The notes beneath the pieces were generated by a model. It ran no database searches. It was not told where the DNA came from and was given only the letters and a program-made list of their open reading frames with translations. A stretch of 64,000 nt of DNA from a virus (lineage: Duplodnaviria > Heunggongvirae > Uroviricota > Caudoviricetes): the IMG/VR virus record IMGVR_UViG_3300009154_000029. One strand, written 5' to 3'. The translations under genes were made by a program, and so were the position numbers. This document shows, piece after piece, positions 8,858-63,907 of this stretch. Positions within the stretch are counted from its first letter, which is position 1, and each line of letters starts with the position of its first letter.

Positions 8858-8895
8858 TTTTTAGATGGAATAGTTTAAAATAACTTTCCATCTAA

Positions 8896-34346: not shown

Positions 34347-34538
34347 ATGAATCATTTTGTTATTAGCGGATCTATTGTCCAAGCAATGAAGGAAAAATAT
34401 GGTGAAGAGATGGTAGAAAAGTGCTTCTATCTAGCAAGTCAAAAATTTCCTACAGATGTCTATGAGGACATAAAGGATAGCGGAGAAATGGATTTAATGG
34501 ATTGTTTTTGTACTATTTACGAAGGTCTTCTGAAATAG
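34347..34538 (+). CDS. hypothetical protein
   Basis: ORF track. Confidence 0.3.
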   Translation: MNHFVISGSIVQAMKEKYGEEMVEKCFYLASQKFPTDVYEDIKDSGEMDLMDCFCTIYEGLLK

Positions 34539-34925
34539 AATTCCTATTTAAATACCTCGTAAGCAAGATATAGGATAACCAAAAACAACCTGAAATTGAA
34601 TAAAAAACGATGTCTGCAGCCCAATAAGAACCTGTCAAGTCCATGATGAGCTTGAAGAGAGCATCGTAGCCAAACGGAAGAAAAAACATTGCGAGCATTA
34701 AAGAGGTTTCCTTTAAGATCGTGAGTCTTTTCTTTTTGTCTTTGAGTATTTTGATTTTTTCTATCACCAGGGTCGTCGTCCATATTGGAAAATTTTTTCA
34801 CAATTTAGCTCCATAGTGGAAAAAAACTGCGGAATTCAAGTTATTCGTTGTATATATTGGAAAAGTTTTGCAAAATAAGGAACTTACACCACTTTATCCT
34901 CATAGAAAAAATAAAATTAAAAATT

Positions 34926-39526: not shown

Positions 39527-40000
39527 ATGAAACACATTGAAATATACGAAGCGTTTTCACAATCTCTAAACACTGGGATCGTTCCTATTACTCAAGTTTT
39601 GGCTAATCCCAAGATGATAGACTTTTCCGTTCTTCCTGATAAGAAAACCGTGATCATTTCACAATCTGATGGAAGAGGAGGGGTAGTTCCAGGATCTTCA
39701 TATAAATACTCAGCACAAGGGAGAAAGGGAAGCGGAATTCTTTCGGTTAAAATCGGATTGGAGATAAACTCGATCGTTAAAAAACCAGACGGATCGATGG
39801 AGGTAAAAGTTATACCAACATCCTCACTTGCTAGAAAGTCATCACAATCAAAAATAGGACCTGATGGATGGATAACAGCTCCTGTTGGTGTTGACAAGGT
39901 CGATTCTTTAATTAAAGATCTAGTTAAATCTAGGGGTAAATCTGGAACATTAGAAACTGAAAATCTAAGTGTTGATTTTTCATTAATCGGTCCTCAATAA
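39527..40000 (+). CDS. hypothetical protein (MKHIEIYEAF)
   Basis: ORF track. Confidence 0.4.
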   Translation: MKHIEIYEAFSQSLNTGIVPITQVLANPKMIDFSVLPDKKTVIISQSDGRGGVVPGSSYKYSAQGRKGSGILSVKIGLEINSIVKKPDGSMEVKVIPTSSLARKSSQSKIGPDGWITAPVGVDKVDSLIKDLVKSRGKSGTLETENLSVDFSLIGPQ

Positions 40001-44115: not shown

Positions 44116-46404
44116 TTACTTGTATTTTCTGATTGATTCTTTTCTGTCTTTAAGGATTTTAAGAAGTCTTTTAGCCACATCCATCTCAGAAGCCTTTCTT
44201 AAAGCTAATGGACCTGGGTCAACGGAAGGTCTTTTTATTGGATCATCATCCGGATCGGTTGGTCTTTGAGGTTTAACTGGTTTTTCAGGATCAACATCAG
44301 GATCAACGTCTGGATCACTTGGTCTAGGCCTAGTGGCAGGCTCTGCATAAGTGAAAGCTTCGAAAGTCATAATTTTTCTAGATCCTATCGATTGTGATCC
44401 GTCCTCGAATAAATTAAAAATTCTTTGTACTCTTGAAGATTTGCTCTCGTTTACAGGTGTTCCGTTAATAACCAATTTGTTATTAACTATATCATATTCA
44501 AGGTGAATCTTATCTCCTACCTCATCATCTATAATTGCATTTGCGATAGGATCTTCGATATATTGTTGAATAGCACGTCTTAAAGGTCTAGCCCCCATTT
44601 CTTTATCATATCCATGCTTCATAATAATTTCCTTAACCGATCTTCCACAAGTTAATTCGATATTTCTTTCTTTTAACTTAGCTGCAACCTTATCTAATTC
44701 ACCATCTATGATTTTGTATAGATTGTCTTGCTCTAAAGGTTTAAATATAATTATTTCATCTATTCTATTAATAAACTCAGGTGGAAGTTTTTTCTTAAGA
44801 TCTGCCTTTACTGCATCTATTCTTTGAATCTCTTGTTTTGAAGCATCTGTAGAGAATCCTATCGTAGGTCTTCTCTCCTCCTCTGCCTTTGCTCCAATGT
44901 TAGAGGTCATGATTATAATGGTATTCTTGAAATCAACCTTTCTACCTTCGCCATCTGTCATATGTCCATCTTCAAAAACTTGAAGCCAAGATTGAAGAAC
45001 TTTAGCGTGTGCTTTTTCTAATTCGTCTAAAAGAACTATACAGTGTGGATTTCTTCTGATCTTTTCAGTGAACTGAGTTCCTTCGCCATATCCAACATAA
45101 CCTGGAGGTGAACCGAATAATCTAGAAACTGTATGAGGCTCACTGAATTCACTCATATCCAATCTAAACATTCTATTAGGATCCCCGAACATTTCCTTAG
45201 CTAAAGCTTTAACTAAGTGGGTTTTACCGACACCAGTAGGTCCAAGGAAAAGAAATACCCCCTCTGGACGGTTTGGATCTTTTAGACCTGCTTTAGTTCT
45301 TTTAATGATACGTGTTACAGCTTCAACTGCTTCGTCTTGTCCAATAACAGACATCTGCAATCTAGACTGTAGGCCTTTTAGAGATTGTTTTTGATCTCTA
45401 GAAACATTCTCGATAGGAATTCTAGTTTTCTTAGAAACAACCTCTTCGGCAAGTTCCTTAGTTATTGATATGGTTTCCTCTTTTGGTGAACCACCTTTAG
45501 CAGCCTTTAATTCCTCTTGGATCTCTTTAACCTTATCATGGGCTTCGAAAGACTCCTCAAATTTTTGTTCTTTTGCTAGACGATTAACCTTTTCCAAAGC
45601 AGATACAAGTTCTGTTTCTAATTCAATTACTCTAGGGTTTTTTGATCTAGACATACGAATTTTAGCTCCTGTTTCGTCCATTAAATCAATGGCCTTGTCA
45701 GGTAAAAATCTGTCGGTAATATATCTTTGTGAAAGTTTTATGAATGATTCTATAGCAGCATCTGTATATGAAACGTTATGAAACTCCTCGTATTTTTTCT
45801 TAATACCATTTAGTATTTCTAAACACTCAGAAAAACTAGGTTCATCCACATAGACCTTTTGAAATCTTCTTTCCATTGCTCCATCCTTCTCAATGCTTTC
45901 TCTGTATTCATTTAGTGTTGTTGCTCCAATTAAACTTAGTTTTCCTCTAGCTAGCGCTGGTTTAAGTGCGTCATAAACCTGTGGTTTTTTTAAGGTGTGC
46001 ATCTCATCCATAAATAGAACTAATCCCTCAGTCTCAACTTCTTGAATAAGTTGTCCTAAAGCACCCACTGCAAAAACTGCGTTAAGATCTATTGATATTA
46101 GTTTTTTGCCGCCTAAAAATTGAGGACAATCACCGCTTGCCATTACTATTGCTAGTTTTTCAACTGCGGCTGTTTTACCTACTCCTGGTTCACCAATTAA
46201 AACTGGATTATTCTTGGTTTTTCTACTTAAAACCCAAATAACTTGTTCAAGTTCTTTGTCTCTTCCAACGACAGGATCTATCTTTCCGTCCTTTGCCATC
46301 TGGGTTAAATCAACACCCAGTGCTTTATAGACCTTGTTACCCTCTGTGACCTGTTGATCTTCAATCTGGCTTTCCAGTACTTTTTTAGTGTGTAGTCTTT
46401 TCAT
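44116..46404 (-). CDS. ClpA/ClpC-like double-AAA+ unfoldase lacking N-domain, with IGF ClpP-docking loop and Pro/Asp-rich C-terminal tail
   Basis: two Walker A boxes GEPGVGKT and GPTGVGKT ~317 aa apart, sensor/arginine-finger blocks, PTIGFSTD loop, tail [28 protein letters not shown]. Confidence 0.8.
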
Positions 46405-47425: not shown

Positions 47426-47973
47426 ATCTGATAGAAAATTTTAAAATTTTAGGCTCCTATAATATAGATTCAATTCTTTCCAAAATTCAATGTTTGGATC
47501 AGGATTGGGATGAATACACATTCAGACAGGAGAGATATAAGGATCATAGTGAAACTAAAACAATTCCTCTTATATGGTCTGAGAAGTTTAATTCAATCGA
47601 AAAGAGAAAGTGGTATAATATCTTTGAGAATGAACTTGAAGAGCTAGAATTTATTTTTAATAGCTCACTCGAAGAAGGTGTAATAATAAGTGCTATTCTT
47701 ATTAATCTACCGAAGGGTAAATCTATAAAAAGGCATATTGATGCAAACCCAATAGGTGAAAGATTCAATCAATGTCACAGAATTCATATCCCTATAACAA
47801 CAAACGAAAACTGTATCTTTGAAATTAACGGAGAAGAGAAATCATTAAAGCCAGGAGAAATTTGGGAAATAAGTAATGTCTTTAAACCACATAGTGTAAG
47901 AAACGAAGGCGATTGCGACAGAATCCACCTACTAATTGACTGGATGCCATTAGAGATTTTTAAGAATCTCTGA
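47404..47973 (+). CDS. cupin / Asp-Asn beta-hydroxylase-like 2OG-Fe(II) oxygenase candidate
   Basis: HIDANP ... HRIHIP ... HSVRNEGDCDRIHLLIDW His/Asp spacing. Confidence 0.4.
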   Translation: MGFSFTMNLIENFKILGSYNIDSILSKIQCLDQDWDEYTFRQERYKDHSETKTIPLIWSEKFNSIEKRKWYNIFENELEELEFIFNSSLEEGVIISAILINLPKGKSIKRHIDANPIGERFNQCHRIHIPITTNENCIFEINGEEKSLKPGEIWEISNVFKPHSVRNEGDCDRIHLLIDWMPLEIFKNL

Positions 47974-48342
47974 TAAATTATTAGATGTTCCTGAATTTCC
48001 TTCCGAAGTGTAGCTAAAAACTCCATTTTTCTTAGTGATTACTAAATCACCAGATTCTGTTTTTAAGCAAACAGTGTTACAAAGATCACCTCTTCCAGTA
48101 AAAAAATCAGCAACAGATTCTGCAAGTCCTCTGCCATCTGGAGTTCCAAAATAGCTTGCGTCTTTACTTGTGCATTTAGAATCAACCTCACCCATACCAT
48201 TTGAAAGAGATTGTTTTCTGATTGAATTTATTTCATCTCTAGTGAACCAATTTATTGAGCCATTACCTTGATTAAATTCAAAACTTTGTGATTCTTCTAA
48301 AAGATCAGAAACAAACTCTTCAAATAATTTAAGACGCTTCAT
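47950..48342 (-). CDS. hypothetical protein, CTS-like N-terminus MKRLKLFEEFVSDLLEE
   Basis: ORF track; motif. Confidence 0.45.
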   Translation of the reverse strand: MKRLKLFEEFVSDLLEESQSFEFNQGNGSINWFTRDEINSIRKQSLSNGMGEVDSKCTSKDASYFGTPDGRGLAESVADFFTGRGDLCNTVCLKTESGDLVITKKNGVFSYTSEGNSGTSNNLSEILKNL

Positions 48343-50589: not shown

Positions 50590-52257
50590 TTGAAGCTCCC
50601 TAAGAAATATCTCACATCTAATCCCAATATCATGAAAAGGGAAATAAAAAAACATGGCGATAAGAAGGATGATGATCCCTCTGCATACAAGGACTGGGAT
50701 GCTGACTATAAAAGTGGAAAGGCAGGAAAGGGTAAAGCAGTTCCAACCAAAAAGAGCAAGTACACAAAAAAGTACAAAGAGATGTTTGGAGAGAACGAGA
50801 GTGCGGGGAAAGACAGAATAATGGACTTCGAAACGTTCACAGTTGAAAACTTGGATGAAGCCTCTAAGATGAGTAAGGATAGTCCAGTTTATAAATCACT
50901 TAAAAAAAAGGCAAAAAAATCAGGATTCCCTTTATCGATTCTTAGAGAAGTGTGGAGCAGAGGGTATGCTGCTTGGAAGAATGGACACGTCCCAGGAACA
51001 ACACCTCAGCAGTGGGCAATGGCTAGAGTCAATTCTTTTATTGTTGGGGGCAGAACCACAGAAATGAGCGATAAGGCTCTTTATAAGAGAGCTAAGAAAT
51101 CAAAACGTGTTAATGAGAGTCAGGAACACCAAGAACTTACTGAGGAGCAAATTGCATGGCTTAATGGAAAAGTTAAAAAGGATTCAACATGGACATTGAA
51201 TCCACAAACAGGACTTGTTGATATTAACGGTAGCTTTAGTTGCGCTGTCTATTTTCCTACGCCAAAAAACAAGGCACTTCATGGAATTAGATTCGGAAAT
51301 GTGACTGGATCTTTTGACTGTAGCTCTTGTTACCTGCTATCCCTTGAAGGAACCCCCCGTACTGTTGGTGTTGATTTCGAGTGCTCGAATAACCCATTAG
51401 ATTCATTGGAAGGTGGACCATTAGAAGTTGGTAGAGATTTTAAATTTTATGCGACAAAGGTCACGTCTTTGGAAGGAGCACCAAAAATTGTTGGTCGTGA
51501 TTTCATATGCACAAGTAGTAAGTTGGTTACACTTAAAGGTGCACCCCAAACTATTATGGGAAAATTTGAGTGTAAAGGAAACGAGTTAGAGACTTTAGAA
51601 GGAGGACCTGAAATAGTAAATGGAACTTTTGATTGCGATGGGAATAAGCTTCAGTCGCTAAAAGGCGGACCTAGAGTGGTTGGAACGTATTACCAGTGTT
51701 GTAGTAACGATCTTCTCTCTTTAGAAGGAGCACCCGAAAAAGTTGGACATTTCTTCTGTAGAGGAAATAAAAATCTAACTTCTCTAGAAGGAGCTTCGAA
51801 TATGGAAACTGACGGTTATTTTAATTGTAGCGGAAATAATTTAACATCTTTAAAGGGATCGCCCAAAAAAGTTGGATGGTATTTTGATTGCACTAATAAT
51901 CCTCTTGAGACCCTCGAGGGGGTAACAATGGAGATAGGAGGTAAGTTTCGTTGTGATTCATTTGCTACTATTGACGGACAATGGAATGTTGGGGGTTGGC
52001 TGAATGTGTTAGAAAGAAAAACTGAAAGCACTAGAAACAACACAGAAGATCCATTACAAATAATAAATCTCGAGGATTCTAAAAAGCTAATTCTAACCAT
52101 ACTGTCTGACGATGTTGTTGATCAATATTTCAAAGAGAATCCATTTGAAATCGGTATTCTAGACAATTTACCTGAATTTAAGGAGAAGGTACTTAAGAGA
52201 ACTGGGCTTAGGGACCTATCTATTTTAGGAAAGGCACTTAGCAAAGGTATGCTTTAA
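50590..52257 (+). CDS. LRR-like repeat protein, conserved-C-tail family (555 aa, ~10 repeats)
   Basis: 22-aa repeats LxSLEGAPxxVGxxFxCSxNxL; tail YFKENPFEIGILDNLPEFKEKVLKRTGLRDLSILGKALSKGML. Confidence 0.6.
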   Translation: MKLPKKYLTSNPNIMKREIKKHGDKKDDDPSAYKDWDADYKSGKAGKGKAVPTKKSKYTKKYKEMFGENESAGKDRIMDFETFTVENLDEASKMSKDSPVYKSLKKKAKKSGFPLSILREVWSRGYAAWKNGHVPGTTPQQWAMARVNSFIVGGRTTEMSDKALYKRAKKSKRVNESQEHQELTEEQIAWLNGKVKKDSTWTLNPQTGLVDINGSFSCAVYFPTPKNKALHGIRFGNVTGSFDCSSCYLLSLEGTPRTVGVDFECSNNPLDSLEGGPLEVGRDFKFYATKVTSLEGAPKIVGRDFICTSSKLVTLKGAPQTIMGKFECKGNELETLEGGPEIVNGTFDCDGNKLQSLKGGPRVVGTYYQCCSNDLLSLEGAPEKVGHFFCRGNKNLTSLEGASNMETDGYFNCSGNNLTSLKGSPKKVGWYFDCTNNPLETLEGVTMEIGGKFRCDSFATIDGQWNVGGWLNVLERKTESTRNNTEDPLQIINLEDSKKLILTILSDDVVDQYFKENPFEIGILDNLPEFKEKVLKRTGLRDLSILGKALSKGML

Positions 52258-52265
52258 AGATAAGA

Positions 52266-53234
52266 ATGAGAAACTTAAAAACATATAAATTATTCGAGAA
52301 ATCACAAGAGATCACACCAGAGCAGAGGGAGTGGCTGGACACCTGCTCAACGGCAGGGAATAGACATTCAAAATGGTCAATAAATCCACTAGGAATGATT
52401 GATGTTGATCATGATTTTTATGCACATGGATCTAATGGAACAAGGTTTTCATCCAATCTAAGAAAGAATCTCACAGGATTTCTTGGATTAAAATTCGGAA
52501 AGGTTTGGGGGGGTTTCTTTGTTAATGACACTGCAATTACTACATTGGAGGGAAGTCCATCTGATGTTGGAGGATCCTTCCACTGTGAGCAGAACAGTTT
52601 GGAATCACTTGAAGGAGCTCCTGAAAGGGTGGGAAGAAATTTCGTTTGTAGTGGGAATACAACACTAAAATCTTTAAAAGGAGCACCTCGGGAGATTGGA
52701 TATGAACACACTTACGACGAGAATGATCTATATCCATCAGTATTTGATTGCTCACTTTGTGATTTAAAGAATCTAGAGGGAAGTCCAGAGTATATACCTG
52801 GTGATTTCAAATGCGAGGGAAATCCACTAGTATCTCTTAAGGGAGCACCTAGAGTTATAGAAAGAAACTTTTATACCAGAACCGGATTAGGTGAACTTAA
52901 ATCACTATACGGAGCTCCTGAAAAAGTAGGGGGTAGCTTTATATGTAATGACTTCACTTTGTATAATGGAACATGGGGAACCTCAGAATCATACACAAAG
53001 CTCTTTTTAGGAGTTGAAGACGATGACTGTAAAATATACGCTAGTTCAGAGAGAATGAAATTGTTGATGACACCTTATGTTACTGACGATTTAGTCGACT
53101 CATTCTTTAAGGAGAATCCACTAGAGATTGGTCTTCTAGACGGTTATCCAGAAATTAAAGCTGAAGTTCTCAAAAGAACAGGACTAAGAGACATGTCATC
53201 ATTAGGACAAGCTCTAAGAAAAAAAATGATATAA
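52266..53234 (+). CDS. LRR-like repeat protein, conserved-C-tail family (MRNLKTYKLFEK)
   Basis: repeats plus tail FFKENPLEIGLLDGYPEIKAEVLKRTGLRDMSSLGQALRKKMI. Confidence 0.6.
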   Translation: MRNLKTYKLFEKSQEITPEQREWLDTCSTAGNRHSKWSINPLGMIDVDHDFYAHGSNGTRFSSNLRKNLTGFLGLKFGKVWGGFFVNDTAITTLEGSPSDVGGSFHCEQNSLESLEGAPERVGRNFVCSGNTTLKSLKGAPREIGYEHTYDENDLYPSVFDCSLCDLKNLEGSPEYIPGDFKCEGNPLVSLKGAPRVIERNFYTRTGLGELKSLYGAPEKVGGSFICNDFTLYNGTWGTSESYTKLFLGVEDDDCKIYASSERMKLLMTPYVTDDLVDSFFKENPLEIGLLDGYPEIKAEVLKRTGLRDMSSLGQALRKKMI

Positions 53235-54610
53235 TGGGAAAACACATTTTAAGCGCAGCAGAATTCTTTCTGAATGAGGGGACAATCAACGATCCATCAG
53301 ATTGGCCAGATAACTGGAAAGACATGCCTGAATGGACACAACTCCAGGAGCTTGGATTTACTGACGCCACCACGCCGCAAATGGCCAAGAACGGTAGCAT
53401 TCTTCTCATGAACTTTGCCATTCCACACTATCCAGGAGGTATAACACTTCAACAATCAGGGTACATTAGAAATAAGTTGGCATCTTCAGGATTCATTAAA
53501 AATTATCGTGATAGCTTTACACTTAAGCAAATGTTTGACTACCTTATAGAGAAATTCACTAAGCTCTCAAAAAAAGGAATAGAAAGAAACCCAGAGCATG
53601 GTGATCTTCCAGATCCAACAGTTGCATTCTTAAATAAGGTGGTTAATGGATCTTGGAGTTTTAACCAGGAAACTCAAAGAATTGACGTTGAAGGTAATGT
53701 TAACATGTCCATGATCAAATCTATACCCGAGGGGATCAGATTCGGAAACGTTTTGGTTCATTTCGTTTGTAATAATATGGGACTTACCAATTTAGATATT
53801 GCTCCGATATATGTTGGTGGATATTTTGACTGCTCGAGTAATAAACTCACCTCGCTAGAGGGAGGACCTGAAAGAGTGGACGGAAATTATGACTGCTCAC
53901 TCAATAAGCTCACAACATTAAGGGGTGCTCCAGAATATTGTGCACACTCATTTGTCTGCAGTTCTAATAAATTAGAAACGCTAGAGGGATGTCCGAAAGA
54001 AGTGGGTAGGAGATTTGATTGTTCAAAAAATCCTCTGAAATCCCTTATTGGCTCTCCTGAGATGAATCCTGAAAGCCAATTTTTTGCAGATCGAACCCTC
54101 ATTAACAATCTAAGTGGAATGCCTGAAGTTGGTGAGGTGACAATTGAGGCATGTAAAAATCTCAAATCTTTAAGGGATTTACCCCAAAGTGTTTATTCCA
54201 TATATCAGGGGGGTATGTCAATCTTTATTAATAAAGGAGGGAATAGATCAGGTGGCAATTTTTCAAGATCATATATTCTTGAAGCAATAGCACAGCTTAT
54301 TTCTTATAGGAATGAAGCTATCACCAGTGATCGTTATTCTAATACTCAGATCCCAGATATAGAAAGAGGCGGATACACCATACACACTAATATATACAAT
54401 TGGAATTCTACACCAAAGGAAAGGGAAAGGGGATTTACTCTTTTTATGACACTTCTAGACAATGACTTCTTAGATCAATACTTCAAAGAAAATCCTATGG
54501 ATATCAATATATTAAATGCATTGCCTGATGTTAAAGCCGGGGTATTACAAAGAACTGGTATAAAAGACTACTCCAAACTAGCAGCAGCTCTAAGAAGCGG
54601 TATGGTTTAA
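53234..54610 (+). CDS. LRR-like repeat protein, conserved-C-tail family (paralog of 36589..37731)
   Basis: shared N-domain, repeats CSSNKLTSLEGGPERVDGNYD etc., tail YFKENPMDINILNALPDVKAGVLQRTGIKDYSKLAAALRSGMV. Confidence 0.6.
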   Translation: MGKHILSAAEFFLNEGTINDPSDWPDNWKDMPEWTQLQELGFTDATTPQMAKNGSILLMNFAIPHYPGGITLQQSGYIRNKLASSGFIKNYRDSFTLKQMFDYLIEKFTKLSKKGIERNPEHGDLPDPTVAFLNKVVNGSWSFNQETQRIDVEGNVNMSMIKSIPEGIRFGNVLVHFVCNNMGLTNLDIAPIYVGGYFDCSSNKLTSLEGGPERVDGNYDCSLNKLTTLRGAPEYCAHSFVCSSNKLETLEGCPKEVGRRFDCSKNPLKSLIGSPEMNPESQFFADRTLINNLSGMPEVGEVTIEACKNLKSLRDLPQSVYSIYQGGMSIFINKGGNRSGGNFSRSYILEAIAQLISYRNEAITSDRYSNTQIPDIERGGYTIHTNIYNWNSTPKERERGFTLFMTLLDNDFLDQYFKENPMDINILNALPDVKAGVLQRTGIKDYSKLAAALRSGMV

Positions 54611-54643
54611 TAGTATTAAAAATTTAAATAGATATATAATTAT

Positions 54644-55222
54644 ATGAAGCATATCCATGACTACCATATATTCGAGAGCACTACCAGCAAGAATCTTGTC
54701 TCCCCCTCACTCTCACCGATTACAACCTACTTCGAGACCGCACAGGGATCCAAGTATCTTCTCTCACAGAAGGGAGAGACCAAGAGGTGGAAAAGCTCAC
54801 ACGCCAACACAGGAGGGGAAGATCAAGGGCTAAAGTCCTGGTATCCCAACTCCATGTTTGTACCTGAGGATAGTCTAGATGCTATGATGGCTTACGAGCA
54901 CTTATTAGATAAAGGATACAGAATATCACTCTCCAAGACCCAGAACGGCAAGCAGGTCTGGATCATTCTTAAAGATGGTGCGTGGACACCAGCTCTCTAC
55001 TCCGACGCATTCCCAACATATAGCAGACTGAACCCAGATAAAGCATCTAAGCCACTAGCTTTCACTAGCTACTCAACGCCATCTCTAGGCATGATGGCTG
55101 TGGAGTACAAACAGGAATCTAATGGACTGATCAGAAGCTTCCATCCTGGTTCTCCAGTCTCCAAGGTGCTACCTATAGATCAGGCTGATCCTAAGGATCT
55201 GTTCTACTTTGGCATTAAATAA
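54644..55222 (+). CDS. hypothetical protein in GC-richer island (MKHIHDYHIFE)
   Basis: ORF track; composition shift. Confidence 0.45.
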   Translation: MKHIHDYHIFESTTSKNLVSPSLSPITTYFETAQGSKYLLSQKGETKRWKSSHANTGGEDQGLKSWYPNSMFVPEDSLDAMMAYEHLLDKGYRISLSKTQNGKQVWIILKDGAWTPALYSDAFPTYSRLNPDKASKPLAFTSYSTPSLGMMAVEYKQESNGLIRSFHPGSPVSKVLPIDQADPKDLFYFGIK

Positions 55223-55296
55223 TTCAGGGTCTAAGAAAAGCCACTATCTAATCTTATATTCACAATTCATCCGAGCTTATTCCGTATATTTGGATT

Positions 55297-55755
55297 ATGA
55301 TTAAATCTAAATCAAAGGGGGAAGATCTCGATAATAACTCCTATTTATGGGAACTCCTTAGGGAGGAGTATCTAGAGGAGCTCTACTCAAGGGTAAGCTC
55401 ATCCGATCTCTTCCTGCCCAAAAGATTTCTCTGGGAGCACGTTATCTGTTTAGTTTCTTATCGCGATCTTCCATCTAGTGTGAACGTGGACAAAGCCATC
55501 TACGAGAAGAAGGTGGAGCACTATCGACAGAAGGTCACAGGTCAGCCTCAGCACTCATTTAATGTATTTATGGCCGAAATAGCCGATAGAATGAATGGAT
55601 ATGACGGGTACGTTCTCGCCGAATGGAATATTGGAATGGAATCAGTGGAGGGATATATGAAGAAATTTGGGGTGGATAGGGACACGGCTTTGAAGATGAA
55701 GAGTCTATACGAGGACTCACCCCTTATAGAGATGGAATGGAAGCAAGTCAAATAG
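55297..55755 (+). CDS. hypothetical protein, paralog of 60185..60610
   Basis: shared EGYM..GVDR..ALK.KSLY....E.EW..V C-terminal blocks. Confidence 0.45.
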   Translation: MIKSKSKGEDLDNNSYLWELLREEYLEELYSRVSSSDLFLPKRFLWEHVICLVSYRDLPSSVNVDKAIYEKKVEHYRQKVTGQPQHSFNVFMAEIADRMNGYDGYVLAEWNIGMESVEGYMKKFGVDRDTALKMKSLYEDSPLIEMEWKQVK

Positions 55756-55863
55756 AACAATCTGCTAAATGATCTGCCCGACTTAAAGGCGGGGGTTCTG
55801 AAGAGAACTGGTCTTAAAGACATGAGCGCTCTAGTCAAAGGTCTAAAAGGGGGAATGTTTTAA
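55756..55863 (+). pseudogene. orphan copy of the family C-terminal tail (NNLLNDLPDLKAGVLKRTGLKDMSALVKGLKGGMF), in frame directly after the TAG stop of 55297..55755
   Basis: manual translation of codons from 55756; no start codon; 35 codons then TAA at 55861-55863. Confidence 0.5.
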
Positions 55864-55874
55864 TTAACCTCTTA

Positions 55875-58160
55875 TCAATTTTTTACAAATCTGTAAATTT
55901 TTGAACCGCTTGTTAGACTTAACAAAAGGATATATGTTCCTGACGATATCACAGAGGTATTTACAACCACTATATTACTCCCCTTAGATAGACGTATTTT
56001 ATTTCTGTATACTATTCTTCCCATCGCATCTATAACATTCACATTTGAGAATTGAGCGGATTCTGAAAAAAAATTTATTCTGTATACATCTTTAACAGGA
56101 TTAGGGGATCCCTCATTAGAGGAAGATCTTACTAGAACTGTAGCAGTTGAAATCTTTGTTAATAAAGCTGATCCATAGGCAGGGATTGTAATGGTTCCAA
56201 TATAGTTATTACCATATACATCTCTGTATGTACCATCCAATGTAGTGACAACAGGGGCATTAGTAGTATTATAAAAAGGAATAAATGTTGTTGTAGGAAT
56301 AGCTACACTTGCGGCATCCCCAGCTATAAATGTTTTCCAGGCAGTCAGTTTCAAACTTGCGGGATCTACAAATGTACCACCAGAGGTAAGATGGTAATAG
56401 TAGTCAAATGGATTGGTTACGTCATCTCTGTAGTAGTTGCTATCAAATACAGCAATCAATCTCATATCATTCTGGATAGTGATTGTTGTAGGAGTATTTA
56501 ACGCACCGTTCCAGTAAAAGAAGTTTTTTTGAGAGGTGGTTGATGGATATATGACATTTTTCTTAACCGTATTGTTTCTCACCTGAGATGTGTCGCTAGG
56601 AAGCCTGTTCATAGAAATACAATCTGTACTGTTATACACCATGTTGGTACGAATATTAACTCTCTTACTATTATTAAGAAATATTCCCTCTCCATTTGTA
56701 GAAGAAACTGAATTACTTGTAATGTTTACATCACTAGCTCCATCTATATAAATACCCCTAGCATCTCCGGTAGTTGTGCTAGTACCAGCTGCTGCTCCCA
56801 CTGTAGTGATAATGATATTATTAGAAATTGTTCTGTTTGTCTTGCCTAAACCTGTGTAAGTGTAAATAGCTCCACCGTCATTCTTCTCACTATTAGTATT
56901 AGTGATATAGTTTTTGTCTACAAGCACATTACCACCCTTCCAATCAATACCATTGAAGCCAATACTATCTATTCTGTTATTAGTAATTGTTACCCCAAGC
57001 CCATCTACAAACACAGCAGCACCTTGTCCATCATCACCTGATCTACCCATTCCGGGGATAAGTCCACACTTAGAAATGGTATTAAACCTAACAGTAACAG
57101 CCCTATCTGCTCTCCCCTGAAGACGAACCCCAGTGTTAAGGCAGTTCTTTATTGTGCTGGACTCAACCAATGCATTCGCCACATACCACATCTTTACAGC
57201 ATCAAAGTTGTACTCAAATTCGCAATTAGATACGGTGATGTTGCTAGCATCCTTTGCTATTAAAGCAGCATAACCAGCTCCGGTAAATCTAAGGTAACTA
57301 AACTTAATATTACTCCTTGCTGTTCTCCCACCGTATCCACCGCAGTGAACCAATGTATCTTGTGCACTCACTTTAATGGTATAACTAGCTGGATTGAGAT
57401 TGCCAAAGTACACTTGTAATGTTTTCCCTGAATTGTTCCAATACCACTCCCCAAAACTGTCAAGAGTCCTGATGTCATCCTGAAAAAAGAACCCGTAATT
57501 AGCTTTCCCGGGATAGGTGTTAGTAACACCTGACCAAATATCACCACTAGCTGGAGCTGGGTTTCTATAGCTCACCTTTGTACCAACTTGGCTTTTAACT
57601 CTTCCTGTATCTAAAATCCATCTCTCTTTCCTTACAATAATCTGAGCTCCTGTCCAGTTAGTTGTGCTTAACTGACTGCTAGTCAAACTGGTATCTCCAG
57701 CTGAAAGTGTACCCACTGACTGATAGGTTAGATATCCCTTATTTGTTGCTGTGTAATTAGGGAATCTACCCATTCCTGTCAGAACACCATTAACCGTTAC
57801 TATCGAAGCTCTACTCGGATCACTGGTTATAGGGTTACTACTGTAGATGCCCACCCCTGAAAGAGTCCATCCTGTAACAGTTACAAATCCGGTAATCTCA
57901 GGAAGGCTTCCTGTACCATAAGCATTAAACACTAGGTTGTCTCTATTGGGAATAAGCTTTCCCTGAAACACATCCCCTCGTTTAAAAGAAATGGTGTCAC
58001 CAGAAGCAAAGGTGGCTGTGTTCACCTTATTTAGTGACTGCCACGGAGCGCCCAATGTGCCAGCATTAGCATCATTTCCCGTGCTTGATGATACGTAATA
58101 ATTCTTTGCCTGTGCTCCTAGGGACGACAAAATGATAAGGTAAAAAATCAGGGCTCTCAT
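55875..58160 (-). CDS. secreted right-handed beta-helix protein with T9SS C-terminal sorting domain
   Basis: signal peptide MRALIFYLIILSSLGAQA, parallel beta-helix-like repeats, C-terminal ~80 aa with Por-secretion CTD pattern. Confidence 0.6.
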   Translation of the reverse strand: MRALIFYLIILSSLGAQAKNYYVSSSTGNDANAGTLGAPWQSLNKVNTATFASGDTISFKRGDVFQGKLIPNRDNLVFNAYGTGSLPEITGFVTVTGWTLSGVGIYSSNPITSDPSRASIVTVNGVLTGMGRFPNYTATNKGYLTYQSVGTLSAGDTSLTSSQLSTTNWTGAQIIVRKERWILDTGRVKSQVGTKVSYRNPAPASGDIWSGVTNTYPGKANYGFFFQDDIRTLDSFGEWYWNNSGKTLQVYFGNLNPASYTIKVSAQDTLVHCGGYGGRTARSNIKFSYLRFTGAGYAALIAKDASNITVSNCEFEYNFDAVKMWYVANALVESSTIKNCLNTGVRLQGRADRAVTVRFNTISKCGLIPGMGRSGDDGQGAAVFVDGLGVTITNNRIDSIGFNGIDWKGGNVLVDKNYITNTNSEKNDGGAIYTYTGLGKTNRTISNNIIITTVGAAAGTSTTTGDARGIYIDGASDVNITSNSVSSTNGEGIFLNNSKRVNIRTNMVYNSTDCISMNRLPSDTSQVRNNTVKKNVIYPSTTSQKNFFYWNGALNTPTTITIQNDMRLIAVFDSNYYRDDVTNPFDYYYHLTSGGTFVDPASLKLTAWKTFIAGDAASVAIPTTTFIPFYNTTNAPVVTTLDGTYRDVYGNNYIGTITIPAYGSALLTKISTATVLVRSSSNEGSPNPVKDVYRINFFSESAQFSNVNVIDAMGRIVYRNKIRLSKGSNIVVVNTSVISSGTYILLLSLTSGSKIYRFVKN

Positions 58161-58419
58161 TTATAGATTTTATTTTTTATGTTATATCTATTTTTCTTAC
58201 CCTTATTATCAGAATTTTATTGAGGATTTGTTGCATATTCTCAAATATTATGAGAAATATGAGCTTTCTAGTCAAGAGTCTACTGCGGTGCTTTCCAGAC
58301 AGGGATGGTGCTAGTGTCAGAGGGTATTTAGCTAAACCCCATGGGGTCGCAAAAAACACGGATTTCATCAGATTCACTCCGGGCTCCTGCCGTACATTTA
58401 CAATATTAATATAAAAGTT

Positions 58420-58859: not shown

Positions 58860-60086
58860 ATGAGAAGAATTTTAAATTTTTATGATTTCACATCAGATTC
58901 ATCAATGAATGAATCTGACAAACCGTTGGAGGGGAAACCGAAAGAAGGAAAGCCTTCATTCGAAATCCCCAAGATTAATCAGAAGATGCCTAGCGATTAT
59001 TTGGGCAAAGGAGGGGGATTGGAGGGAGGAAAATACCCCGGAGGTAGAAAAACATATGCCAGACTAAGGACGAAAGCTGTTACTGATCTCCTAAAATTAA
59101 AAAAAGATATGGAGGAAGAGGGTTTTATGGAAGACTGTGAAGAATCATTAAAGGGGGCTAAGGAGGAGTTAAAAAAATTGTTTGCTAGCCCGATTACTGC
59201 CAGAAAATTTAGAGACAACTACGAGAAATCAAAGAATACAGCAATTGCTAATAGCCAAAAATCAATTTTTAAAAAGTATTTAAATGCGATCGAAAATCTT
59301 GAAATTGCCTACTATACAAATAGCGGTCTTTGGCAGGAAGGCATATCCCCATTAGTCAGAAAGAAAATTGAAAAAATATATCCCACAGGATCTAAATTCT
59401 ATAAGGAATACCCCGATGCTATTGCTTTTGTTCTTCCTGAAGATCCGGAGCTTAATAGAATTATATTCGTGAATTGTGTTAAGGGATTAGAAAAAAGCAT
59501 GTTTGACGAAATGAAGTTCGTTATGATCCATGAGATTCAACATTTACTGTTTAAGATCTGTCCAATAAATCCAGAGGCCCAAATTGGAAAGACTTTTATT
59601 GGCCCAGGAGAACCAAAATCAAGTCCGTTAGCATCCTTGTTTGGAGGAGGGGGTCTTTTTAAAACTGCTAAGGATTTATATTTTAAATTATCGGGTAAAA
59701 AATCAGAGGCGGAGATGGAATCAGCTTTAGCTCGAATAAAGAGAATATCAAAAGAAACTAGTAGCGACACCGAGGCAAAGAACATATATTTTTATTGGAC
59801 TAAACTATGCATGGAAAAGGGTAATGGCCAATACATAGATGAGATAACTGAAAATGCATCTCGAATTATTGCTATGAGATCAGTTCTAGGGGTTTCCCCT
59901 GGGAAGGACATAAGCAAAAAAATGATCCTGCCCTATATCCTTAGAAAGGAAAGCGATACAAACATATCCTGGCTATTGCTGGCTTGGGCTAAAAACGGAT
60001 TTAAAGATTTGGATCAATTTTTAAATGGAATAAACGCACTGGCTAAATCGGACCAAGCCTCTCAATTTGGCGGAGATTACGCGTAA
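58860..60086 (+). CDS. HExxH zinc metalloprotease-like protein, CTS-like N-terminus MRRILNFYDFTSD
   Basis: HEIQH motif (MIHEIQHLLF) around residue 224. Confidence 0.45.
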   Translation: MRRILNFYDFTSDSSMNESDKPLEGKPKEGKPSFEIPKINQKMPSDYLGKGGGLEGGKYPGGRKTYARLRTKAVTDLLKLKKDMEEEGFMEDCEESLKGAKEELKKLFASPITARKFRDNYEKSKNTAIANSQKSIFKKYLNAIENLEIAYYTNSGLWQEGISPLVRKKIEKIYPTGSKFYKEYPDAIAFVLPEDPELNRIIFVNCVKGLEKSMFDEMKFVMIHEIQHLLFKICPINPEAQIGKTFIGPGEPKSSPLASLFGGGGLFKTAKDLYFKLSGKKSEAEMESALARIKRISKETSSDTEAKNIYFYWTKLCMEKGNGQYIDEITENASRIIAMRSVLGVSPGKDISKKMILPYILRKESDTNISWLLLAWAKNGFKDLDQFLNGINALAKSDQASQFGGDYA

Positions 60087-60184
60087 ATGAAAGATAAACT
60101 TACCATCTCATACAGCCTGGACTCACCTCCAGGCTTTTTTGTGGTCTAAGCCCCCGGGCAGGTTTTCGAAAAATCCCCGAGTTT

Positions 60185-60610
60185 ATGGGTTATATTTGGA
60201 TTATGAACCAAGACGAGATCAAAGAGCTAGAAGCCCAAACACTAAAGCAATATCTGAAGGAGCTAGAGACCCTGGTGTCCATGCCCGAACTCTACAAATC
60301 AAACTACCCCTTATGGGACAAGATGGTGCATAACAGACTCAGGCATCCCACCGATGAGAAGATAGACTGGGCTCTGATCTACCAGTACGAGGCGGTAATG
60401 GACACACCCCAGCACATGCTCGATCTGTTTGTCTCAGTGGAGAGGGATGATTGGGGGGTTTCATCGTTTCCCATAGGGGAGATACGCTGGGACATGGACA
60501 CCGAAGGGTATATGAGGGTCTATGGAGTGGACCGACCCATGGCTCTCAAGATCAAGAGTCTATACCGAAAGCAGGTGTTCATAGAGCTCGAGTGGGTCAA
60601 AGTCCACTAA
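60185..60610 (+). CDS. hypothetical protein in GC-rich island, paralog of 55297..55755
   Basis: alignment of C-terminal blocks; GC-rich codon usage. Confidence 0.45.
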   Translation: MGYIWIMNQDEIKELEAQTLKQYLKELETLVSMPELYKSNYPLWDKMVHNRLRHPTDEKIDWALIYQYEAVMDTPQHMLDLFVSVERDDWGVSSFPIGEIRWDMDTEGYMRVYGVDRPMALKIKSLYRKQVFIELEWVKVH

Positions 60611-60654
60611 ACCCCCAGGAGACCCGCCCACCACAAGCCAATGATATATAAGAC

Positions 60655-61041
60655 ATGAAACACATAGACACATACGAGATGCTAGAGGCTAAAGGCCCAT
60701 GCTGGACAGGCTACAAGCAGATTGGCACCAAGATCAAGAAAGGCAGAAAGGTGCCGAGATGCGTGCCGATCAAGGAGGGAGAGATCACACCACCACCAGG
60801 CTGGGAGATGCAAGACTCATCCCTCTATAAGAGATACACGTTCAAGGACTTCAAAGTTGCCATGGCATTTATGAACGAGGTCGCAGAGGTGTGCAACCAA
60901 ATGAATCACCATCCCAAGTGGACCAACGTTTATAAGACTGTCCAGTGCTGGCTTAGAACCCATGACGCAGGAGATGTGCCTACAGAGAAGGATCACGAGC
61001 TTGCTCTAGCTATGGACTCTATAGCCTCCAGGCTCAGCTAG
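60655..61041 (+). CDS. pterin-4a-carbinolamine dehydratase (PCD/DCoH)-like protein with N-terminal extension
   Basis: EVCNQMNHHPKWTNVYKTV...RTHDAG matches the [E]xxxHHPxxxxxY...HD PCD signature. Confidence 0.6.
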   Translation: MKHIDTYEMLEAKGPCWTGYKQIGTKIKKGRKVPRCVPIKEGEITPPPGWEMQDSSLYKRYTFKDFKVAMAFMNEVAEVCNQMNHHPKWTNVYKTVQCWLRTHDAGDVPTEKDHELALAMDSIASRLS

Positions 61042-61067
61042 AAGCCCACACAAAACTCCAATCATAC

Positions 61068-61093
61068 AGTCCAGGTTATTCTGGACTTTTTTA
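61068..61093 (+). terminator. rho-independent terminator
   Basis: AGTCCAG-GTTATT-CTGGACT hairpin followed by TTTTTT. Confidence 0.55.
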
Positions 61094-61099
61094 TGTCCC

Positions 61100-61272
61100 C
61101 TCATATAGTATAGTAGTAAGGTAGTATGCGAAGGGGAGCCTACCCCTACCTAGTGCCAGCACCTAGTCCAGCATATATCATGAGGAGAAGCTTGGATAGG
61201 CCTCCCCACATAGTATGATGGTAACATAGTATGCAAGGGGAAGACCGGAACCCCTAGTGGACACGCGTGGGA
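61100..61272. repeat. two ~65-bp imperfect direct repeats (~105-bp spacing), each with a GGGG..CCCC hairpin, in GC-rich non-coding DNA
   Basis: CATATAGTAT.GTAAGGTAGTATGCGAAGGGGAGCCTACCCCTACCTAGTG vs CACATAGTATGATGGTAACATAGTATGCAAGGGGAAGACCGGAACCCCTAGTGG. Confidence 0.55.
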
Positions 61273-61622
61273 GGTGCTAGGAAGAGCCTAGATGAGGGAC
61301 GGCTAAGTGGGTGTATATGGGGAATCTGAGGGAGCTCTGGCCCCTGATGGAAACCCCTCTGCAGGACCGAGCCACCACCCAGGGTGGGTACACGGTGATT
61401 TCTGTGATGCCGCGTTTGCCTAGTTTCCCAGCCCGGGCCGAGTCCACCGCCGACGGTTCGCCGGGACGTCTGGGAAATCCTGGAATTCTGTGTGATTTTG
61501 TGGAGATTTGTGTGAATCCCCGGTCGGGCTCACCCGGTCCCACAGATTCCCCCGCTAATCTCGCCCCGCCAGGCTGCCTTAGATCCCTATAGGAGCTCGC
61601 CTCGCCCCGGATATATAGGTGT

Positions 61623-62249
61623 ATGAAGCATATTAAACCCCTAAACGAAAACTGGGATGACGACGACCCGGATTACGACATTCCCGATGACGACGAGCCC
61701 ACCGAGCCCTTTAAGAGAAGATTGGATTTACCTAAGTGGGAGAAGCTCTTTCACGTTCTCTATATAGGTGACCACTACGCCCTAGTCTATATGGGCACAG
61801 ACCAGAAGGACCTTTGGATAGTTGACTTGGACTGGGGGGAAATCCGAGAGGATATGGAGAATTTGGGATTCTGGCTTGTCTTTGATGCCGATCCCACTAC
61901 TTGGGAGGAGAACCAAGGTGGTCTGGAGGATTTTCTCACTCTGGCCTGGCAGGGTAAGCTGGGAATTAAGAAGGAGGATCTCTTCGAGGCTGGGGATGAT
62001 CCCGAGGTTTCGGCTGAGCGATTCATTGACAATCAGGCTTTCTCCAAGAAGGCCGAGGTTTGCCGAATCAGCACGCCGGAGTTTGCGGAGGTGGTGATAG
62101 GAGAGCTGCTGAAAGCTCATGGCCGGGCTCATGAGAGACACATAGTCACTGCCAAGAGGTATCGGAACATTCTTCCGGCGGATTTCAAGGGTGTAGGTAA
62201 CAAGAGGATGGCGAGCTATATCGCAGCCGTGTGGCCGAGCGCAACTTAG
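61623..62249 (+). CDS. hypothetical acidic protein in GC-rich island (MKHIKPLNENWDDDDPD)
   Basis: ORF track. Confidence 0.45.
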   Translation: MKHIKPLNENWDDDDPDYDIPDDDEPTEPFKRRLDLPKWEKLFHVLYIGDHYALVYMGTDQKDLWIVDLDWGEIREDMENLGFWLVFDADPTTWEENQGGLEDFLTLAWQGKLGIKKEDLFEAGDDPEVSAERFIDNQAFSKKAEVCRISTPEFAEVVIGELLKAHGRAHERHIVTAKRYRNILPADFKGVGNKRMASYIAAVWPSAT

Positions 62250-62353
62250 GCGCAGGTTGGAGTCTACTCTCCCGGCTCCTTTTGAGAGCCACGCCCGTGA
62301 CCGGTGTCCCCTAGTGCCACAATGTAAATGTATGGCATTTCCCCGAGAAGAAA

Positions 62354-62473
62354 AAAATATTCCGGTGGTATTTTGATATATAAGACAGAATAAAAAAAAT
62401 GAGTATGAACAAAATATTCCGGTGGTATTTTGATATATAAGACAGAATAAAAAAAATGAGTATGAACAAAATA
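62354..62473. repeat. perfect 57-bp tandem duplication (2.1 copies) spanning the leader and first 12 nt of the downstream gene
   Basis: aaaatattccggtggtattttgatatataagacagaataaaaaaaatgagtatgaac at 62354 and again at 62411. Confidence 0.8.
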
Positions 62474-63157
62474 ACCAGCTACGAGGATTTCCTTAATGAG
62501 GATAATAAACCAAAAGCTAAAACTAAAACTAAGGTTATAATCCTCCCTATAAGCAGTAGTCTATCCAATGGAGAATCTGCCCCGGCAAATAAAATCATCA
62601 CTCCTAAGTTCTGGAGCATCAAACAAGCAAAGCCCGAGCATAAACAAATAGCACTTGATATTCTTAATGCACTAAGCGGGTTTACCGAGAATGAAGAAGC
62701 TGTGATAAAGACGTTTAGAGAGGAAATAAAGACACAAGAGGATTTCTTTGGTGTTCAACAGGTTTGGCAATATTGGTTTCCAAGCATACAGAATTTGAGA
62801 AATGTGAGGTACAAAACTATGGCTGAAGCTGATAAGATGGGTAAAACCAGGGAAACCAGAAAGGGAATTGGCTTCAGAAACGCCTTAGGCTACTATCTTA
62901 ACGATAAGCAACTTGCCACATTGAATGCTGTTCTCCCTGCTGGAATTATAAAGATCGCAAAAACTAAAGGGTCAGGTGGAGAAATTTCCACATCAAGGAC
63001 AAGAACAATTGACTTTCCCGATATGACAAAAGAGGCTCTTATAGATATTCTATTAAGAAGCTTATCTATAATGCAAAAGGATCTTACATATACCGGAGAG
63101 CAAGTTTGCGCCCATATAGACTCTGTTTGTAAAAATTACAGAGAAGCTAAAAAGTAA
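62462..63157 (+). CDS. hypothetical protein, CTS-like N-terminus MNKITSYEDFLNE (alternative start 62456)
   Basis: ORF track; motif. Confidence 0.45.
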   Translation: MNKITSYEDFLNEDNKPKAKTKTKVIILPISSSLSNGESAPANKIITPKFWSIKQAKPEHKQIALDILNALSGFTENEEAVIKTFREEIKTQEDFFGVQQVWQYWFPSIQNLRNVRYKTMAEADKMGKTRETRKGIGFRNALGYYLNDKQLATLNAVLPAGIIKIAKTKGSGGEISTSRTRTIDFPDMTKEALIDILLRSLSIMQKDLTYTGEQVCAHIDSVCKNYREAKK

Positions 63158-63370: not shown

Positions 63371-63907
63371 ATGAAAAAAATCATTTTGATTGTAGCAGTT
63401 GCTTTGACTTCAGCAGTTGCTAGTGCACAGATGCCATGCGCATTTAAGAAATCAGACAAGATGTTAGAAGGTACAGTTTCTTATACTAAAGCAACTGATA
63501 CTAAAGCAACTTGGACTCTAAACCCAACAGTTGGTTACTTTGTAACTAATCGCGTTGCAGTTGGTCTATCTGCAGAATTAGGTGAAACCGCAGATGTTAA
63601 AACAACAAACGTGGGTGCATTCGCAAGATGTTACTTTATGAACATCGGACAACACGCACACGTTTACTCGCAATTAGGTGTTGCTGCCAACTCCTCTACA
63701 GACGCTGGCGTTAAGACAACTTCGACTACAGCAGGTCTTGGTCTTGGTGCTAACTACTTCGTTAGTCCAAAATTAGCTCTTAGCATGAAATTAGCAGATC
63801 TAGTAAGCTACACTAACAGCGATTCACATTCAACATTAACAGTTGGATTCGAAGGTGTAACTAGTCCGTTCACTACAGGAAGCTTTGGGGTACTTTATAA
63901 GTTCTAA
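63371..63907 (+). CDS. outer-membrane beta-barrel protein (porin-family/OmpA-like barrel) with signal peptide
   Basis: signal MKKIILIVAVALTSAVASAQ, alternating amphipathic strands, C-terminal ...GVLYKF. Confidence 0.55.
   Translation: MKKIILIVAVALTSAVASAQMPCAFKKSDKMLEGTVSYTKATDTKATWTLNPTVGYFVTNRVAVGLSAELGETADVKTTNVGAFARCYFMNIGQHAHVYSQLGVAANSSTDAGVKTTSTTAGLGLGANYFVSPKLALSMKLADLVSYTNSDSHSTLTVGFEGVTSPFTTGSFGVLYKF

Follow-up and report, generated by a model that had tools for sequence, protein, structure and literature searches.

The window analysed here is the whole 64-kb stretch of virus DNA IMGVR_UViG_3300009154_000029 (64,000 nucleotides; Caudoviricetes), on which all coordinates are numbered. 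A gene on its minus strand encodes a 761-residue protein in which a cleavable signal peptide, a right-handed parallel beta-helix and a type-A C-terminal sorting domain (CTD) of a type IX secretion system (T9SS) are joined in one open reading frame (ORF). The gene product is predicted, with moderate confidence, to be a host-derived glycanase that is exported by the infected cell via Sec and the T9SS and acts on surface or extracellular polysaccharide. A secreted moron-like accessory gene rather than a tailspike is the best-supported reading of the locus. A preliminary description, made from the sequence alone, had placed a secreted T9SS-sorted beta-helix protein at 55875-58160; the ORF coordinates were exact, and the leader, the beta-helix and the CTD all held.

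Export signals and fold of the protein

Type-A cargo of the T9SS is exported by Sec with cleavage of the leader, folds in the periplasm, is recognised through its CTD, crosses the outer-membrane translocon, and loses the CTD with release from or attachment to the cell. The gene and its parts were delimited as follows, with the basis of each in brackets.

55875..58160 (-): complete ORF, 761 residues, ATG start, comprising signal peptide, beta-helix glycanase, beta-sandwich, linker and T9SS type-A CTD (ORF call, hidden Markov models (HMMs), structural model)
58107..58160 (-): signal peptide of the Sec type, residues 1-18 (MRALIFYLIILSSLGAQA), with cleavage predicted to follow A-Q-A (direct reading, model helix, homologue leaders, identical sibling copies)
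56481..58103 (-): right-handed parallel beta-helix, predicted catalytic module, residues ~20-560 (PF13229, model, Foldseek, invariant columns)
56145..56480 (-): helix-capping region and auxiliary beta-sandwich, residues ~561-672 (secondary structure and per-residue confidence (pLDDT) of the model)
56106..56144 (-): disordered linker, residues 673-685, pLDDT <50 (model)
55878..56105 (-): T9SS type-A CTD, residues 686-761, with SPNPVKD..., VIDAMGRIVY, SGTYILLL and KIYRFVKN (TIGR04183, PF18962, our own CTD HMM, profile match to 8glk_D, separate beta-sandwich)

The N-terminus, MRALIFYLIILSSLGAQA followed by KNYY, consists of a basic n-region, a 12-residue hydrophobic core and an A-x-A motif ahead of the mature start NYYVSSSGND. 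Residues 2-14 form a helix in the AlphaFold model, and the same kind of leader precedes the conserved NYYVSSSGND in homologues at 40-48% identity. At the other end of the protein, TIGR04183 matched residues 686-761 with 31.3 bits (cut-off 23) and PF18962 (Por_Secre_tail) matched residues 686-754 with 31.3 bits (cut-off 27), so that the Por-secretion-tail search proposed in the preliminary description gave scores above both curated cut-offs. A CTD HMM of our own, trained on homologues from which close and near-identical relatives had been left out, matched the 76 residues 686-761 with an E value of 4e-16. The same HMM matched no second ORF in the window or its flanks that could be further T9SS cargo. 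In a profile search of the Protein Data Bank (PDB), the C-terminus also matched the CTD chain of a T9SS substrate (8glk_D). The protein thus combines the features of type-A cargo, namely a Sec leader, a sorting domain above cut-off and a CTD sandwich set apart by a linker. As read from its sequence, it carries both signals required for export by Sec and the T9SS, and the export itself is predicted.

The central part was matched by Beta_helix PF13229 (73.4 bits, cut-off 25.9) and by the TIGR03804 repeat (21.8, cut-off 19.45). An AlphaFold2 model built from a 52-sequence alignment had a mean pLDDT of 89.8 and a pTM of 0.83. It consists, in order, of a signal helix, a right-handed beta-helix (~20-560), a cap with a beta-sandwich (~561-672), the linker (673-685) and a C-terminal beta-sandwich (686-760), in which the CTD strands 692-760 were modelled at pLDDT 81-90. 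When the model was compared with the PDB by Foldseek, the top match was the Bacteroides GH141 enzyme BT_1002 (5mqp; E 4.8e-18, TMt 0.61), of which four chains aligned over 600-638 columns, followed by GH120 XylC. Klebsiella capsule depolymerases and coliphage tailspikes ranked lower (E 1e-10 to 1e-3, TM <=0.39), and the best match in a viral structure library reached a TM of only 0.32. The profile search of PDB sequences yielded GH136 lacto-N-biosidases, the uncharacterised parallel beta-helix protein 9rx2, GH141 and GH120; the match to 5mqp was confined to residues 172-280.

The protein therefore has the BT_1002-like beta-helix fold of GH141 and is related to GH141, GH120 and GH136 by structure and at the profile level, whereas its identity to these enzymes is only 14-15%. 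It was not filed in GH141, because the match to PF21231 (GH141_M) scored only 11.5 bits against a cut-off of 27, and it is best described, from the model, as a GH141-like beta-helix glycanase. D428 and D473, which lie on successive coils (KNDGGAIYT and GIYIDG), were invariant in 52 of 52 homologues and could be the catalytic acid pair. No PHROG family matched at E <= 0.01, and a tblastn search of 50,697 phage records gave no match. Nor was an N-terminal virion adaptor domain found in the model or the homologue alignment, in which the mature protein begins at the helix cap at residue ~20. The likeness to phage tail families is confined to the generic beta-helix fold, with no homology detected in the PHROG and tblastn searches. 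It had been suggested beforehand that the protein would not group with tailspikes, and these searches, together with the bacterial GH141 enzyme as the best fold, agree with that suggestion.

Phage context and the repeat-bracketed cassette

The region surrounding the gene was examined over ~95 kb, with precomputed gene calls on overlapping freshwater-lake metagenome contigs for the window and for flanks of ~8 kb on the left and ~10 kb on the right. It consists mostly of small co-directional ORFans. The named genes encode thymidylate synthase (ThyA), the anti-Thoeris protein Tad6, YAcAr, a GMP-reductase/IMPDH-like protein, a GT2 glycosyltransferase, thioredoxin, Band_7, SmpB, an M28 peptidase, Fpg, a ClpB-like AAA+ protein, an Asp/Arg hydroxylase, DUF5824 and Pterin_4a, as well as PG_binding, glucosaminidase and SLT proteins, which are peptidoglycan hydrolases of the lysozyme type. 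Genes in the flanks strongly matched phage-only PHROGs (phrog_1987, E 3e-32; phrog_33624, E 2e-17; phrog_7485, E 1e-22), and no ribosomal or other bacterial core genes were found in the ~95 kb. One overlapping contig of 88 kb, Ga0209085_1000040, reaches ~74 kb past the window, and the genome is therefore well above 130 kb. Among 185,579 species-representative genomes there was no close copy of the gene, and neither the gene nor the neighbouring outer membrane protein (OMP) gene at 63371 had a match in an IMG/VR search. A 2,853-residue concatenate of five window proteins, used to look for cultured or deposited phage relatives, gave only ClpB-region matches among the best 15. We assign the region to a phage genome with high confidence, and the genes around the locus that share an N-terminal tag (see below) are phage-like and not chromosomal, as had been presumed.

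The OMP gene had been taken as a possible prophage edge. This did not hold, as phage-like content continues for at least 10 kb past the OMP gene and for at least 8 kb past the left end of the window. Within the ~95 kb covered, no Pfam family of integrases or repressors was detected. With regard to the earlier proposal of a lysogenic-conversion or moron gene, the lysogenic part is not supported, given the lack of such families in the ~95 kb and of a close copy in the species genomes, whereas the moron part agrees with the arrangement of the locus described next.

The gene lies on the strand opposite to that of its neighbours, in a cassette of 2.4 kb whose further elements are listed below.

58259..58282 (-): direct repeat bracketing the cassette, upstream copy (core TTGACTAGAAAGCTCAT), ~100 nt ahead of the ATG; siblings lose homology here or shortly past it
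58161..58258 (-): conserved 5' region with a CATAAT hexamer, the TAATATTTG element and an A-rich leader (sibling conservation)
55822..55845 (-): direct repeat bracketing the cassette, downstream copy (core TTGACTAGAGCGCTCAT), 30-53 nt past the stop codon; from here on the L019 sibling is divergent

The 24-nt repeat (core TTGACTAGAnnGCTCAT) has only two matches in the 64 kb, where 0.19 were expected, and in none of 100 shuffles were two matches reached. Alleles in sibling contigs are 85-94% identical to the gene. Homology and synteny among the siblings stop at or just beyond the repeats. Between the ATG and the upstream repeat, 0-3 substitutions in ~115 nt were observed among siblings, compared with a synonymous divergence of 0.11-0.21 in the gene, and the stretch from the stop codon to the downstream repeat is likewise near-invariant. 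A sigma-70-like match (TTGACT-17-CATAAT) was found at 58275..58247, with its TTGACT inside the upstream repeat copy, and TAATATTTG is near the Bacteroidota -7 consensus; the exact Bacteroidota element TAnnTTTG was not found upstream of the gene, where only TAATATTTG occurs. These elements may form a promoter. Judging from the sequence, the gene is a discrete moron-like cassette with putative transcription signals of its own, because it is on the opposite strand, has its own conserved upstream region, and is bracketed by repeats that coincide with the synteny breaks.

Within the lineage, the dN/dS of the gene was 0.14-0.19 overall and 0.26-0.47 in the linker and CTD, where the sites are few. 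The reading frame was intact in all siblings, and the signal peptide was unchanged among their copies. This substitution pattern indicates purifying selection. The 761-residue gene was kept in every sibling contig that spans the locus, although its neighbours vary: the L019 sibling has genes added inside the bracket, and the L021 sibling is without the 59-, 72- and 408-residue genes. That the gene is a passenger of recent capture, with no function for the phage, might be supposed from its host-derived character and slightly raised GC content (0.39-0.40 against a background of ~0.35). On the other hand, the low dN/dS, the intact frame, an upstream region more conserved than synonymous sites, the retention despite flank turnover, and the presence of the gene in at least three phage backbones all speak against a passenger, and we regard this explanation as hardly tenable.

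Several other features of the locus were observed. Several assemblies end in or beside the gene, which suggests co-existing variants. The gene added inside the bracket in L019 (JGI Ga0480303_0000036, 8653-9918(-)) encodes 421 residues with a PG_binding-like segment and a tag-like N-terminus (SFSEF); therefore, the content of the cassette varies. This protein was considered as a second secreted cargo and rejected, as it looks PG-binding-like and has no signal peptide. Two paralogous genes with similar upstream sequences, at 55297-55755(+) (152 residues) and 60185-60610(+) (141 residues), lie on either side of the segment with the cassette and the 59-, 72- and 408-residue genes, which suggests that recombination between these paralogues shapes the locus. 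A sharp high-GC island (50-58% against ~35%) at 60150-62400 takes in the 141-residue gene and the Pterin_4a gene, a gap of 580 nt in which no gene was called (61042-61622) and a 208-residue gene, and a milder rise (43-47%) occurs at 54600-55750. The OMP gene, 63371-63907(+), lies 5 kb from the cassette and outside it, with phage-like genes running on beyond; its 178-residue product has a signal peptide and a weak OMP_b-brl match and is a second Sec-exported accessory protein.

Alleles, alternative explanations and proposed function

Beyond the siblings, the next best relatives were only 46% identical. The two best, P0004 and P0005 (743 and 746 residues), have the same compact architecture of signal peptide, helix and CTD, and the phages that carry them, among them L015 and L017, share essentially nothing else with the window. 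P0003 is a complete internal gene of L105 (4886-6898; ENA ERZ27292224 k119_121309), whose backbone is of the L017 type; the gene agrees fully with the L017 allele over the first 60 nt, and its body is of the window type, with 85% amino acid identity. As judged from these sequences, the gene recombines between phage backbones like an exchangeable module, because of this recombinant and of the occurrence of alleles across at least three unrelated backbones. The closest chromosomal homologues (38-43% identity) come overwhelmingly from Ferruginibacter and other Chitinophagaceae, often several per genome. These proteins of 900-1,300 residues carry a CTD themselves, which is separated from the helix by PKD/Ig repeats; the phage copies are without such repeats. 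The host of the phage is probably a T9SS-bearing member of the Bacteroidota, in the Chitinophagaceae, such as Ferruginibacter.

The following observations weigh against an exported, non-virion glycanase of a phage. The signal peptide was judged by eye and by conservation, not by a predictor program, and scans for sigma-70 promoters and intrinsic terminators around the gene gave nothing above shuffled expectation. No gene for a capsid, portal or terminase protein was detected in the ~95 kb; the identification as a phage is accordingly based on accessory genes and PHROG families, and the main gap in it is that such hallmark genes are missing. The alleles in L015, L017 and L105, namely P0003, P0004 and P0005, end structural or tail clusters co-directionally and with almost no upstream intergenic space, a position typical of tailspikes, and lie beside tail-fibre-like, virion-structural and endolysin genes, where position alone cannot exclude a virion role. 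P0003 is entirely without a CTD; T9SS export is therefore not obligatory for every variant, and a CTD-less variant would reach only the periplasm until lysis. Finally, the Ferruginibacter paludis homologue adjoins hexuronate-catabolism genes (UxaC, a mannitol-dehydrogenase-family gene, a PfkB kinase and a GDSL esterase), a neighbourhood that suggests a foraging enzyme and not one that acts on a self-glycan.

One alternative is a role in the virion, as a tailspike or depolymerase that arose from a host T9SS enzyme. The beta-helix would then be the part of the tail that binds the receptor and cuts glycan, with the signal peptide and CTD as relics or re-purposed, for example as an assembly or chaperone domain. 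The L015 and L017 alleles are co-directional with, and at the end of, a structural/tail cluster: the L017 allele is preceded by the gene of a virion structural protein (phrog_1645, E 1e-141) and by that of a PTL_trimer protein, and the L015 allele has the gene of a 2,106-residue protein on one side and those of an M15 endolysin, of a baseplate-wedge-like protein and of a collagen-like tail fibre (E 7e-51) on the other. Beta-helices are common to many tailspikes and depolymerases, allele swapping resembles that of receptor-binding proteins, and the allele without a CTD also fits this explanation. However, every phage allele has a cleavable Sec leader, identical among siblings, whereas tail proteins assemble in the cytoplasm. 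The protein has no N-terminal particle-binding domain, its fold is nearest to that of a bacterial hydrolase, and its CTD is under purifying selection. In the window, moreover, the gene is read from the opposite strand, within an accessory region and a long way from any structural gene. A comparison with known phage enzymes (Klebsiella phage K64-1 S2-4, HK620 and CBA120) gave a similar picture: a right-handed beta-helix carried by a phage, of a polysaccharide-cleaving type (predicted for the window protein) and in some alleles next to tail genes, but differing in the Sec leader, the T9SS CTD, the missing adaptor, the low TM scores and the lack of a PHROG tail family. The earlier statement that the protein is not a virion component is supported by the leader, the CTD, the fold and the lack of an adaptor and is weakened by the 46%-identical alleles that end tail clusters in other phages. 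Taken as a whole, a virion-associated protein seems unlikely.

The main rival is a nutritional auxiliary metabolic gene, by which the infected cell would secrete the enzyme to harvest environmental pectin-like or uronate glycans for a long infection. GH141 BT_1002, the nearest fold, acts on pectin. The hexuronate-catabolism genes beside the F. paludis homologue, the occurrence of the homologues as multi-copy T9SS cargo families in polysaccharide-degrading Chitinophagaceae, and the other metabolic accessory genes in the window are also consistent with this role. In contrast, a secreted enzyme would be a slow and shared good in lytic infection, the PKD/Ig repeats of foraging enzymes have been lost from the phage copies, and allele replacement between phages and adjacency to tail genes fit host-surface specificity better. 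We consider the nutritional role possible, at rather low probability.

A third alternative, in which the region is a bacterial chromosomal island or other mobile element, with the gene encoding ordinary T9SS cargo of the chromosome, would account for the missing hallmark genes, for the absence of the contigs from IMG/VR and for the chromosomal origin of the closest named homologues. It is opposed by the lack of a close copy in the species genomes, the extreme ORFan density without ribosomal or core genes, the presence of Tad6, ThyA, SmpB and phage-only PHROGs, the more than 20 ORFs with a common N-terminal tag and upstream motif, and the alleles in unambiguous phage genomes. This alternative is very improbable.

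For the exported glycanase, we infer how it would be secreted, on what and when it would act and how the phage would profit as follows. The enzyme would be a host-type secreted beta-helix glycoside hydrolase, carried in streamlined form by a large freshwater Bacteroidota phage. Its precursor would cross the inner membrane of the infected cell via Sec, guided by its cleavable signal peptide, and would fold in the periplasm, where the host T9SS would recognise the type-A CTD and move the protein across the outer membrane; the CTD would then be removed, and the enzyme would be released or attached to the cell surface. Outside, it would cleave polysaccharide, with the capsule, exopolysaccharide (EPS) or surface glycan of the host itself as the most likely substrate. 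A host surface glycan is favoured because the gene is swapped like a host-range determinant, adjoins tail genes elsewhere, and has shed the PKD repeats. Such an exported non-virion depolymerase would clear or destroy glycan around infected and neighbouring cells, which may help progeny to escape and adsorb, exclude competitors, or both; superinfection exclusion or polysaccharide modification, proposed earlier, could be its role.

More tentatively, and with less confidence than in export itself, the T9SS may serve as the delivery route for a soluble non-virion depolymerase that is exported before lysis, strips a strain-specific surface glycan from the infected cell and its neighbours and takes the place of the tailspikes of other phages, its gene being traded like a receptor-binding module between ~100-kb phages, where it is tail-adjacent, and a jumbo-type phage, where it forms a repeat-bracketed cassette.

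The phage protein was compared with known exported proteins. The Chitinophagaceae T9SS cargo hydrolases (e.g. F. paludis P0007) have a homologous signal peptide, beta-helix and CTD at 38-43% identity and the same invariant residues; they differ in their larger size, in that the phage copies join the helix straight to the CTD, and in a genomic context of chromosomal sugar catabolism. Lom and Bor of lambda and Llp of T5 are exported phage morons that alter the surface of the infected cell; they are of small size, belong to the outer-membrane proteins or lipoproteins and use Sec/Lol for export, and in the case of Lom and Bor expression is from prophages. The window gene resembles them in bearing host-type export signals and, as far as its putative promoter goes, in being set apart transcriptionally. 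It differs as a 761-residue enzyme with a predicted T9SS route, in a phage with no sign of lysogeny in the ~95 kb.

The closest precedent is Cryophage (Bellas 2020, Nat Commun, PMC7468147), a 76-kb Bacteroidetes phage in which variable endoglucanase, GH39 and PA14 genes carry T9SS type-A sorting domains. Its authors called this T9SS cargo a unique occurrence and proposed hijacking of the host T9SS (PMC7468147). Both phages encode type-A cargo with carbohydrate-active or adhesin-type catalytic parts, in variable, exchangeable genes and from a cold freshwater-type habitat, and in both the role as cargo is computational. The window phage differs in its GH141-like beta-helix, its much larger genome, the repeat-bracketed opposite-strand cassette, and the alleles in at least three unrelated backbones. 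A full-text literature search found no further report of phage-encoded T9SS cargo beyond Cryophage. The window gene is a second documented example and not a categorically new principle. It indicates that phage T9SS cargo is not a one-off, since a secreted-type glycanase occurs in several unrelated backbones and is selected, streamlined compared with the host versions and exchanged as alleles. If exported depolymerases of this kind are real, host-range and capsule-stripping functions of Bacteroidota phages may lie partly outside the virion, which would matter for host-range prediction, for the reading of "auxiliary" carbohydrate-active enzymes (CAZymes) in viromes, and for the sourcing of secretable depolymerases. 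In addition, the Chitinophagaceae homologues provide a host hint for an otherwise unassignable large freshwater phage.

Other features of the window

More than 20 ORFs start with the common N-terminal tag M-[KR]-x-[IL]-x-x-[FY]-[ED]-x-[FL]...E (e.g. MKRLKLFEEFVSD, MNKQIIRNFDEFINEE and MKHIHDYHIFES), which the glycanase-like protein does not have. Examples are listed below.

18266-18907 (-): tag-bearing ORF
18937-19497 (-): tag-bearing ORF
26789-27583 (-): tag-bearing ORF
38275-38946 (+): tag-bearing ORF
39527-40000 (+): tag-bearing ORF
47950-48342 (-): tag-bearing ORF
52266-53234 (+): tag-bearing ORF
54644-55222 (+): tag-bearing ORF
58860-60086 (+): tag-bearing ORF
60655-61041 (+): tag-bearing ORF
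62456-63157 (+): tag-bearing ORF

The tag resembles, in concept, the capsid targeting sequence of T4 internal proteins (PMC3012670), which would imply many capsid-packaged and injected proteins. The 8-mer GATATATA occurs 26 times, often before tag-bearing genes, and is a candidate phage promoter motif, because 16 of the 26 copies are located within 25 nt upstream of the ATG of an ORF. At 62350-62463, a 57-nt tandem duplication in perfect register (98% identical) spans the motif TGATATATAAGACAGAAT and the start-codon region of a 233-residue tag-bearing gene.

Tad6 (PF25188; 2743-3360(+)), SmpB (33040-33468(+)) and a full-length ClpB-like double-AAA+ protein (44116-46404(-)) form a gene set typical of very large phages. 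The last ORF has 762 residues, almost the length of the glycanase-like protein, and paralogy between the two was ruled out, as it encodes an unrelated AAA+ protein. The thymidylate synthase at 720-2012(+) has 430 residues and covers only positions 29-307 of a 335-position PHROG profile, which implies an insertion of ~150 residues, possibly an insertion domain or an intein-like element. The ORFs 50590-52257(+) and 53234-54610(+) are paralogues with repeated, leucine-rich-repeat-like G-x-F-x-C-S-x-N-x-L-x-S-L-E-G units; both match phrog_7816, and the former additionally matches DUF5824 and the C-terminal segment of a phage cytidyltransferase family.

Tandem tRNA-like genes were located at 24212-24371(+) and 24447-24541(+), with Rfam tRNA scores of 32.8 and 33.9 bits, above the gathering score. 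They carry 88-nt and 36-nt insertions in the anticodon/variable region and neither is called by ARAGORN; they may be phage tRNAs with introns or long variable arms. An element at 34513-34801 that is shared with L015 was considered as an RNA and rejected, as it shows a coding-like substitution pattern (small membrane protein) and no Rfam match. The small hydrophobic protein gene (~61-75 residues) found there, at 34513-34698(-) in the window and 16016-16243 in L015, shows 78% protein identity between phages that are otherwise unrelated. The L015 copy is located directly downstream of the M15 endolysin gene, and the protein is possibly holin-like and shared by phages of the same host.

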